The notes under the pieces are model-generated. The model saw only the letters and a program-made list of their open reading frames with translations, searched no databases and had not been told where the DNA came from. A stretch of DNA of 44,529 bases. Origin: Escherichia phage SP1. Shown here in pieces: positions 37,760 to 38,548 of the stretch (positions are counted from its first letter, which is position 1; every line of letters begins with the position of its first letter). Location: the sequence record PV610739.1. One strand, given 5' to 3'. A program made the position numbers and the translations under genes.

Positions 37760-38548
37760 TTAACGGCGGCGACGTTTACGTGGTGCTTCGTCTTCGTCGT
37801 CGTCGTCCTCATCTTCGTCATCGCGGGACTTGCGACGCTTGCGAGGTTTTTCGTCTTCCTCGTCTTCGTCATCGTCATCACGACGCTTGGATTTCTTGGA
37901 CTTGCGCGGCTTATCATCTTCGTCATCGTCATCACGACGTTTGGACTTCTTAGCCTTGCGCGGTGCTTCATCTTCGTCGTCGTCGCCCAGGTCGTCATCG
38001 GAACAAGAAGACCCGCCGCCACCGAAGGAATCACCATCATCACGGAAGCGAAGACCCATCAAACCCGCACCTAGACCTTTGCCGTTGGTGTTGTTCCACG
38101 CCCAAATATCCAGGGACACGTTGCAATAACAACCGGAATAGATTTCCTGGCCTTCGATCTCGTCGCCGGTGATAGTCAGACCTTGTTCGGTCTGCTTCTC
38201 GCCCAATGACGTTTGGATGTTAGGCTGTTTGAACGATTTGGCGTTGATGTACAACATTCCTTCAAATTCTTCGGTTACTTCGTCGCGCTCGTCACCGTCG
38301 CGAACTGCGCATTCCTTAGAATCCTGGGCGTAGTGGCGGTCCATCCACTTATCGGCGTTCTTCTCGGATTTCAGCTTGTCGGTAAGCACTGCGCGCGCTG
38401 CCGCTTCCACTTTGTCCACCTGCGGATCTTCTTTATCCAGAAGAATCACGGCACGGTATGCCGGTTTTTGCCCATCCTGTTTAGGGGTATCACGTTCCCA
38501 AATTTTCAGGAAGCATACGCGCACATTTTTCAGGTTGACTTTAGCCAT
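37760..38548 (-). CDS. ssDNA-binding protein (T7 gp2.5-like) with charged repeat tail
   Basis: MAK start, Gly-rich linker GLRFRDDGDSFGGGG, then acidic/basic repeat tail ending PRKRRRR. Confidence 0.55.
   Translation of the reverse strand: MAKVNLKNVRVCFLKIWERDTPKQDGQKPAYRAVILLDKEDPQVDKVEAAARAVLTDKLKSEKNADKWMDRHYAQDSKECAVRDGDERDEVTEEFEGMLYINAKSFKQPNIQTSLGEKQTEQGLTITGDEIEGQEIYSGCYCNVSLDIWAWNNTNGKGLGAGLMGLRFRDDGDSFGGGGSSCSDDDLGDDDEDEAPRKAKKSKRRDDDDEDDKPRKSKKSKRRDDDDEDEEDEKPRKRRKSRDDEDEDDDDEDEAPRKRRRR
37813..37971 (-). repeat. tandem ~54-bp coding repeats in SSB C-terminus
   Basis: Three near-identical units encoding D/E runs alternating with PRKSKKSKRR. Confidence 0.7.

Follow-up and report, generated by a model that had tools for sequence, protein, structure and literature searches.

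Alternating acidic and basic blocks in the C-terminal tail of the single-stranded DNA-binding protein of Escherichia phage SP1 and its relatives

In the textbook model, a phage or bacterial SSB (single-stranded DNA-binding protein) consists of an oligonucleotide/oligosaccharide-binding (OB) fold and an acidic tail, the tip of which recruits partner proteins while the tail competes with single-stranded DNA (ssDNA) for the binding cleft. In gp2.5 of phage T7, the aromatic last residue, F232, is essential for contacts with the polymerase and the helicase. The SSB of E. coli has a disordered C-terminal linker engaged in multivalent interactions and the acidic tip DDDIPF, and gp32 of phage T4 has a basic N-terminal B-domain for cooperativity and an acidic C-terminal A-domain for partner binding and autoinhibition. 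Regarding the T7 structural type, the study of Enc34 ORF6 described solely acidic tails in the four solved proteins and reported that Enc34 ORF6 deprived of its acidic tail binds double-stranded DNA (dsDNA) (PMC5686142), and the tail of gp2.5 modulates the dynamics of DNA binding (PMC10359462). Here, we have examined the SSB gene of Escherichia phage SP1 (sequence record PV610739.1; the whole stretch analysed, 44,529 nt, is called the window below), a Dhillonvirus, that is, an HK578-like E. coli siphophage. Its product ends in a tail in which acidic and basic blocks alternate, a design that seemingly has never been studied. No description of an alternating or polyampholyte SSB tail was found in the literature searched, the coverage of which was incomplete, so novelty is unproven.

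The initial annotation had placed a T7-type SSB at 37760-38548 of the window, and the open reading frame (ORF), on the minus strand, agreed exactly with this (Table 1). The score of the protein on the Pfam family PF10991 (Enc34_ssDNA-bd, formerly DUF2815) was 111.2 bits (E 5.7e-32), the curated cut-off being 26, with residues 3-193 aligned to positions 2-172 of the 176 in the profile; the protein also matched PHROG 112, 'Gp2.5-like ssDNA binding and annealing protein' (E 3e-52). Sequence matches in the Protein Data Bank (PDB) were 4klk, 4jg2 and Enc34 ORF6 (5odj). An AlphaFold2 (AF2) model built with 50 homologues gave block-mean values of the predicted local distance difference test (pLDDT) of 91-98 over residues 1-170, a mean of 63 over residues 171-180 and block means of 43-54 over residues 181-262, for which no secondary structure was modelled. 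When this model was compared with the PDB, Foldseek returned 4klk, 5odl, 5odk, 5odj and 4jg2, followed by T7 gp2.5 (1je5), all of them with a probability of 1.00. The core is thus confidently predicted to adopt the T7-type OB fold, which agrees with the initial assignment and narrows it to the Enc34 ORF6/DUF2815 family, and residues 176-262 are predicted to be disordered. Y137, G139 and C140 were invariant in the alignment of 50 sequences, and in 4klk the residue aligned with Y137 was the Tyr of the segment EVYSG. The family's DNA-stacking aromatic residue stands at the start of strand beta-4 and corresponds to Trp150 in Enc34 and Tyr158 in T7 (PMC5686142); by alignment, Y137 would be its counterpart. 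Judging from these matches, the gene product is the replicative and annealing SSB of a Dhillonvirus.

Compared with its closest characterised relatives, the SSB of the window differs mainly in the tail. Enc34 ORF6 (5ODJ, 5ODK, 5ODL) shares with it the PF10991 domain, the OB-fold variant (Foldseek E 5e-12), a neighbourhood of the order DUF2800-SSB-PolA and a disordered C-terminal tail that is acidic at its start, despite a core identity of only ~20%. However, in Enc34 ORF6 this tail is a short stretch of purely acidic character, with D or E at 16 of its last 29 residues, whereas that of the window protein spans 87 aa, contains four Pro-initiated basic blocks and ends in RRRR. T7 gp2.5, with ~11-15% identity, is of the same structural type (1je5, Foldseek E 8e-7) and likewise serves as an SSB in replication, with an annotation as annealing protein. 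In its tail, a small basic patch (...AKASKPRDEE...) precedes the final acidic run and the end is ...EADEDGDF, in contrast to the repeated acid/basic unit and the PRKRRRR end of the window protein. The usual tail of T7-type SSBs had been described as acidic in the initial annotation, and the characterised members are indeed plain acidic, the sequence of gp2.5 included. A short, purely acidic tail, usually closed by a hydrophobic or aromatic residue, is typical of the PF10991 family, outside the Pfam domain definition, and is not what the window SSB carries. As a separate observation, the Lys-Pro-Arg patch in the C-terminal region of gp2.5 (…SAKASKPRDEESWDEDDEE…) lies between two acidic stretches, a faint single-copy echo of an acid/x-Pro-basic/acid arrangement.

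The tail of the window SSB is a strongly charge-segregated polyampholyte made of repeated (D/E run)-x-Pro-(K/R run) modules. It contains 38 D/E and 28 K/R residues, which gives a net charge of -10, on a core of -7, and a charged fraction of 0.76. Its charge-segregation parameter kappa was 0.59, as against 0.12 +/- 0.04, with a maximum of 0.31, in 2000 shuffles. Predicted disorder, high charged fraction and high charge segregation are the sequence features of a blocky polyampholyte, and all three were found here. Moreover, a scan of all the ORFs in the window showed that the SSB is the sole one of at least 50 aa with at least two strict acid/basic alternations. The first acidic block, A1 (DDDL...), aligned with the DDF(E/D)DL start of the plain tails of relatives. 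Alternation and a basic end had both been recognised initially, and the layout down to PRKRRRR bears this out. The description as three units of ~18 aa holds for the three full basic-plus-acid units but leaves out the terminal PRKRRRR, which follows them and brings the basic blocks to four. Similarly, Tandem Repeats Finder recovered the proposed 54-bp period, but the repeat encodes the tail only in part, and recent copying of DNA accounts for no more than two units: the DNA identity is 85% between units 1 and 2 and 59-61% between unit 3 and either of them. A weak match of the tail to PHROG 15004, 'SSB', was obtained (E 1.6e-5), and a homology search with the tail only (79 aa) yielded none of 8000 word candidates at E <= 0.001, the low-complexity correction stripping the signal. 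Two antisense ORFs, 37754-38074 (+) and 37830-38129 (+), and the out-of-frame ORF 37705-38043 (-) were considered as genes and rejected as by-products of the GAn/AAn/CGn codon repeats.

Table 1. Position of the SSB gene, of the segments of its product and of neighbouring elements in the window.
Feature	Position	Strand	Basis or remarks
SSB gene, Enc34_ssDNA-bd/DUF2815 family	37760..38548	-	262 aa, ATG start, TAA stop; ORF list
OB-fold core, residues 1-175	38024..38548	-	AF2 pLDDT, Foldseek, alignment
Gly/Ser hinge GGGGSSCS, residues 176-183	38000..38023	-	Translation; pLDDT <=63 from the hinge onward
Acidic block A1, DDDLGDDDEDEA, residues 184-195	37964..37999	-	Translation
Basic block B1, PRKAKKSKRR, residues 196-205	37934..37963	-	Translation
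Acidic block A2, DDDDEDDK, residues 206-213	37910..37933	-	Translation
Basic block B2, PRKSKKSKRR, residues 214-223	37880..37909	-	Translation; missing from the three-block alleles L006 and L013
Acidic block A3, DDDDEDEEDEK, residues 224-234	37847..37879	-	Translation
Basic block B3, PRKRRKSR, residues 235-242	37823..37846	-	Translation
Acidic block A4, DDEDEDDDDEDEA, residues 243-255	37784..37822	-	Translation
Terminal basic block B4, PRKRRRR, residues 256-262	37763..37783	-	Invariant: 12/12 complete IMG/VR alleles, SECphi4 and SECphi18
54-bp tandem DNA repeat	37863..37984	.	Tandem Repeats Finder: 2.3 copies, 86% matches, score 181; also find_repeats family D2
DUF2800/PD-(D/E)XK exonuclease, upstream of SSB	38873..40273	-	Pfam PF10926, E 7e-67
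Family A DNA polymerase, downstream of SSB	35243..37534	-	Pfam PF00476
Terminator-like hairpin, 8 pairs (6 G-C), then T-run	37721..37741	-	19 nt past the SSB stop; consensus match only
Sigma-70-like promoter match, upstream of the SSB start	38613..38641	-	9/12 matches; one such site expected by chance

Sequence variation among isolates indicates which level of this design is conserved. The SSB gene matched 154 phage records with 80-98% nucleotide identity, nearly all of them Escherichia or Shigella phages. In a spread sample of 60 of these records, most matches were 771-795 nt long, five records (HK578, JL1, EK99P-1, AV129 and Psq-1) gave matches of 723-729 nt and several shorter alleles matched only in part. 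We compared the window with 12 complete alleles from IMG/VR. Most alleles carried four basic blocks, three of them (L006, L013 and L009) carried three and one (L008, 224 aa) carried two; in addition, the SSB of phage SECphi4 has three blocks and that of SECphi18 has four. The alignment of the 13 alleles showed at least nine different indels in the tail, all in frame, while the first acidic block and the ...DEDEAPRKRRRR end did not change. Thus, the length polymorphism anticipated in the initial annotation, which had proposed to compare repeat copy number across isolates, was found as 2, 3 or 4 basic blocks with the frame kept, and module copies are gained and lost through in-frame duplication or deletion, by recombination, between the repeated coding units. 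Across all pairs (Nei-Gojobori), the ratio of non-synonymous to synonymous divergence (pN/pS) was 0.095 in the tail and 0.064 in the core, with a synonymous divergence (pS) of 0.31 and 0.27, respectively. A low pN/pS together with a high synonymous divergence means that the protein is constrained and the DNA repeat is not: it is the protein sequence of the tail that is under purifying selection.

Some of the records retrieved carry unexpected labels. Dhillonvirus SSB genes, with ~90% identity, were present in records whose labels name Campylobacter, Acinetobacter or Sodalis phages, among them MG065648 (Campylobacter phage A144) and NC_013600 (Sodalis phage SO-1), and OR594180 (vB_EcoM_SHAK7693) is filed under Autographiviridae/Kayfunavirus, yet its SSB and neighbourhood are Kagunavirus-like. 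The host or taxonomy labels of the A144, SO-1 and SHAK7693 records may be unreliable.

The alternating tail is not peculiar to the window phage and, from the sequences compared, represents a grammar conserved within a subfamily. When the full protein was the query, in a search that is biased because shared words decide the candidates, 120 PF10991 proteins were among the matches listed, 112 of them with alternating tails of 1-12 basic blocks as counted by the parser, ~12 units being reached in some metagenomic relatives. To obtain an unbiased survey, the OB core alone was searched with HMMER against 1.84 billion representatives clustered at 50% identity. This search returned 2217 proteins at E <= 0.001; among the best 150 of them, 142 could be classified, and these comprised 123 plain acidic tails and 19 alternating ones (13%). 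Almost all basic segments (372 of 386, 96%) started with x-Pro (KP, RP, AP or PP), and 52% ended in SR before the next acidic run. The same grammar was found in relatives down to ~26-37% identity. As for the end of the tail, 64 of the 112 alternating tails finished in an acidic run with a hydrophobic tip (for example DDDVA, DDDDI, DDDDLPF or DDDEIPF) and 43 finished in a basic block, including the Dhillonvirus and the Jersey/Kagunavirus clades. Among cultured phages, plain acidic tails with a hydrophobic last residue were those of Chi, APSE-7, Acinetobacter 4316, PaMx74, Xanthomonas Elanor and a Vibrio phage. Alternating tails were longer than plain ones (median 98 versus 26 aa) and more negative (median net charge -12 versus -8), and the cores that carried them were also more acidic (median -2 versus +2; Mann-Whitney p 1.6e-13, ignoring phylogeny). 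A neighbour-joining tree of the OB cores placed a plain tail at the root and required at least 14 changes of state, with alternating clades of 31 and 19 sequences plus several small ones; this is a crude tree, built on 157 columns at low identity with only 172 of the 268 sequences parsed, and a number of independent origins is not claimed. For scans of bacterial genomes, the alignment of 50 sequences offered no segment of sufficient conservation. An alignment-based search with the second alternating-tail clade, in which Amorphus orientalis is the one member with an NCBI name, produced only 7 plain-tail relatives.

Nearer to Dhillonvirus, the SSBs of the Guernseyvirinae (Jerseyvirus SETP7, Kagunavirus Golestan and Cornellvirus FSL SP-038) have cores 35-45% identical to that of the window and tails that follow the same grammar (DDLEDDEDETPRRERRRNR, DDLEDDEEDEAPRRERRRR and ...DDDDDKPSKPKRRPSRDEDDEEEERPRRKRRSYEDDEE). 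Jerseyvirus and Kagunavirus carry a single acid-plus-basic module (...DDLEDDEDETPRRERRRNR) as against the four basic blocks of the window, while Cornellvirus FSL SP-038 has two basic blocks between acidic runs and an acidic end. By sequence, these tails look like a minimal form of the window tail. T4 gp32 belongs to an unrelated fold family, and its two arms stand at opposite ends of the protein and are not repeated. A tip resembling that of E. coli SSB (...DDDDDLPF or ...DDDEIPF) is found in some relatives of the window SSB, whereas the Dhillonvirus clade has no IPF tip. Finally, the blocky polyampholyte regions of eukaryotic condensate proteins are, like the linker of E. coli SSB, disordered and engaged in multivalent interactions; the window tail is built of charge blocks and is not Gly/Gln/Pro-rich.

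A link between this protein and antiphage defence is given by the preprint of Stokar-Avihail et al. (bioRxiv 10.1101/2022.08.27.505566). There, the SSB of SECphi4 triggers Retron-Eco8, and so does that of SECphi18. The structural figure leaves out the 'flexible C-terminal residues' of the SSB. T56P is an SSB escape mutation listed under Retron-Eco8, and N152H, F106V, T21P and F95L appear as SSB escape mutations in a later block of the table, which, from the main text, is probably that of ShosTA (10.1101/2022.08.27.505566).

How such a tail might work can be framed in several ways. The explanation that we favour, to which we give a probability of roughly one half, is composite: the acidic blocks would keep the roles of a canonical tail and the basic blocks would add a multivalent surface of opposite charge. 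When ssDNA is absent, the acidic blocks would occupy the DNA-binding cleft and so enforce specificity for ssDNA, as in Enc34 ORF6, and basic patches on the polymerase or the primase-helicase would offer them a docking site, the family A polymerase being a candidate ligand. The basic blocks between them and PRKRRRR at the end could pair up with acidic blocks, either within one SSB molecule or on its neighbours, and could touch DNA phosphates or acidic surfaces of partners. The outcome would be a set of multivalent, salt-sensitive contacts between SSB molecules, with DNA and with partners, bearing on cooperativity, annealing and local concentration at the fork, in which one arm would combine two roles that in T4 gp32 fall to separate arms, a basic N-terminal one and an acidic C-terminal one, and copy number would tune valency and reach. 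The acidic function is probably retained, given that alternating tails are net negative, that A1 appears to be the counterpart of DDF(E/D)DL and that many relatives keep canonical tips. Disorder, high charge blockiness and purifying selection, as read from the sequences, are compatible with either of the consequences suggested in the initial annotation, altered partner interactions or condensate-like assembly.

Several observations weigh against the composite explanation. The existence of natural two-block alleles (L008) implies that the middle units are individually dispensable. The Dhillonvirus clade lacks the hydrophobic or aromatic residue that is canonical at the C-terminus, so docking on partners may work differently or not at all. 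The AF2 model shows no docking of the tail, and contacts of the basic blocks have been seen neither in experiment nor in structure prediction. The difference in core charge between tail types ignores phylogeny, and the published SSB escape mutations of SECphi4 and SECphi18 considered here all lie in the OB core and are uninformative on the tail. Lastly, frameshifted tails occur in two GenBank records and in one short Logan contig. In vB_EcoS-22664B1 (L026, MZ234008) the frameshift is of +2 nt and in vB_EcoS-101114B2 (L027, MZ234014) of -49 nt, in both cases inside the SSB tail. In both records, moreover, unit 1 is duplicated perfectly (54 bp), and the annotated coding sequence of these records (protein P0010) overruns the normal stop in an alternative open frame (...MTKMKHRARLRSPNVVMT...). 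If genuine, these tails would argue for a dispensable tail; they are probably sequencing or assembly errors associated with the repeat. Separately, one IMG/VR contig (L011) ends within the SSB tail, with the translation ...AVSYTHLRAHET and adapter-like sequence, so this contig was broken at the repeat.

A second explanation, possible if on balance unlikely, is that the tail is above all a nucleic-acid-binding arm, the basic blocks, and chiefly the terminal arginine run, binding dsDNA, RNA primers or junctions, which would offset the acidic core and aid annealing. The more acidic cores of alternating-tail proteins, with -7 in the window itself, fit this idea, but shared ancestry confounds the correlation. 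Within the tail, conservation is highest in the terminal basic block, which is invariant in the Dhillonviruses and the sole basic block of the Jersey- and Kagunaviruses, and the family annotation is that of an ssDNA-binding and annealing protein; PRKRRRR and the PRRERRRR of the Guernseyvirinae presumably resemble arginine-rich motifs. On the other hand, the neighbouring acidic runs would neutralise the basic blocks, and more than half of the alternating tails (64/112) are acidic at the end.

More doubtful is a tail acting mainly as a condensate scaffold, which would bring the SSB, whether ssDNA is present or not, into replication foci by electrostatic self-coacervation, with the number of repeats setting the phase boundary. 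Blocky polyampholytes and E. coli SSB have been reported to phase-separate, and the charged fraction, the kappa value and the predicted disorder of the tail speak for this idea, as does the multivalency of 1 to ~12 units across relatives. Acid/x-Pro-basic repeats are likewise present in another protein encoded in the operon (40758-41279). Nevertheless, a tail of -10 on a core of -7 disfavours simple self-coacervation without DNA or cations, and the Jersey- and Kagunaviruses get by with one acid-plus-basic module. Nothing on a condensate role of such an SSB tail was found in the literature searched. A broader proposal, which is equally doubtful, would make of these proteins an undescribed widespread subclass in which the modular polyampholyte tail, taking the place of the classical acidic peptide, is a multivalent electrostatic scaffold that assembles SSB-coated ssDNA, and perhaps the 40758-41279 protein, into a replication or recombination compartment, with repeat number as an evolvable tuning knob.

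Neutral low-complexity expansion, that is, slippage in a tolerant disordered tail giving functionless repeats, would account for tandem DNA repeats whose copy number ranges from 2 to 4 among viable isolates. It is improbable: amino acids of the tail are kept while synonymous sites drift (pN/pS 0.095 at a pS of 0.31), all the complete alleles are in frame in spite of at least nine indels, the ends are invariant, and the x-Pro-basic grammar recurs in 96% of the units, in relatives with a different codon usage and ~30% core identity. The same pattern of drift speaks against a role at the DNA level, in which the 54-bp repeats would be iterons or another cis-acting site and the peptide would be incidental. 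There is a precedent in the ori of phage lambda, which lies inside gene O, and here the tandem repeats sit within a replication gene while a second array (93 bp) is found in the first gene of the operon, beside the divergent primase-helicase gene. However, we regard this possibility as very remote: synonymous divergence is at least as high in the tail as in the core (0.31 versus 0.27), units are just 59-85% identical to each other, copy number changes freely and distant relatives keep the amino-acid grammar and not the DNA. A sequencing or assembly artefact, named as a refuting condition in the initial annotation, is practically ruled out for the feature as a whole, since error-prone repeats may account for the frameshifts in two GenBank records and one Logan contig and for the adapter-derived end of one IMG/VR contig, but not for the presence of one and the same in-frame tail in 12 complete IMG/VR alleles and in 154 phage records, which stem from independent studies and many laboratories.

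The SSB gene lies in a leftward replication operon of the order 173-aa protein, DUF2800 nuclease, 80-aa ORF, SSB, 56-aa ORF and family A polymerase, with a SNF2 helicase further on; the primase-helicase gene (41886-44150) is transcribed divergently from it. The DUF2800-SSB-PolA order is also present in Chi, SETP7 and others, and two distant alternating-tail SSBs (L028 and L040) sit in the same phage module. In L040, a Tad2-like gene (PF11195; 7254-7517, +) stands between the DUF2800 nuclease and the SSB of this distant alternating-tail phage contig. The weak promoter-like site and the strong terminator-like hairpin on either side of the SSB gene, as sequence matches, would let the SSB be expressed above the polymerase. 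An escape mutation of SECphi4 from Retron-Eco8, which gives weak support to a promoter, falls in the intergenic region 5' of the SSB (10.1101/2022.08.27.505566).

Other genes of this operon presented features of their own. The 173-aa protein encoded by the first gene (40758-41279, -) matches PHROG 3127, an annotation without function. Its gene contains a 93-bp tandem repeat (40964-41146), adjoining the divergent primase-helicase gene, and the central linker of the protein consists of ~31-aa repeats rich in acid and x-Pro-Ala-Lys (…EDEAPAKTKKAPAKGKAKK…). The gene gave matches of 426-627 nt among Dhillonviruses, so it is also polymorphic in copy number. N- and C-terminal helices like those of this protein occur in proteins encoded 5' of the DUF2800 nuclease in SETP7, FSL SP-038, Chi (gene 044) and L028, with different linkers. 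At the DNA level, comparison of the SSB tail with the 40964-41146 array revealed only a 23-nt match of acidic codons, with no shared repeat and no sign of gene conversion. The DUF2800 nuclease has a charged linker at residues ~295-335 (...TATDDDLADEAPKATDREARKAARRAKRGKKEEEAPG...), separating the Cys-cluster nuclease domain from the C-terminal one, which opens with a DDDL...EAP motif, as the SSB tail does; this linker is not conserved in the nucleases of Chi, SETP7, FSL SP-038 and Acinetobacter 4316. The idea of a motif shared by three replication proteins was rejected, as it holds only loosely: the SSB alone passes the strict alternation scan and the nuclease linker is not conserved beyond the Dhillonviruses. 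The 56-aa ORF between SSB and polymerase (37531-37701, -) matches PHROG 10102, again without a function. In the preprint's supplementary table, its near-identical homologue in SECphi18 and SECphi6 bears a +C frameshift (E21fs) in defence-escape mutants, tabulated beside DNA-polymerase mutants, apparently in the Borvo block as judged from the main text (10.1101/2022.08.27.505566).

What has been found here is a variant of the tail on a well-known protein and not a new kind of system. What makes it of interest is the break with the acidic-tail paradigm, the selection acting on it, its recurrence in a subfamily and its occurrence in tractable phages. Dhillonviruses (the BASEL phages and SECphi4, SECphi6 and SECphi18) grow on E. 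coli K-12 and offer natural alleles with 2, 3 and 4 basic blocks, and their SSB is already a trigger of Retron-Eco8 and is also mutated in escapers listed for another defence system. The function of the tail, its valency and any role in immune sensing are therefore directly testable. Taken together, acidic runs interleaved with 28 basic residues, an end with five arginines, purifying selection on them and a presence in about one in eight representatives of the family suggest that, for the replisomes of such phages, the classical model in which the tip of the tail docks on partners is not the whole story.

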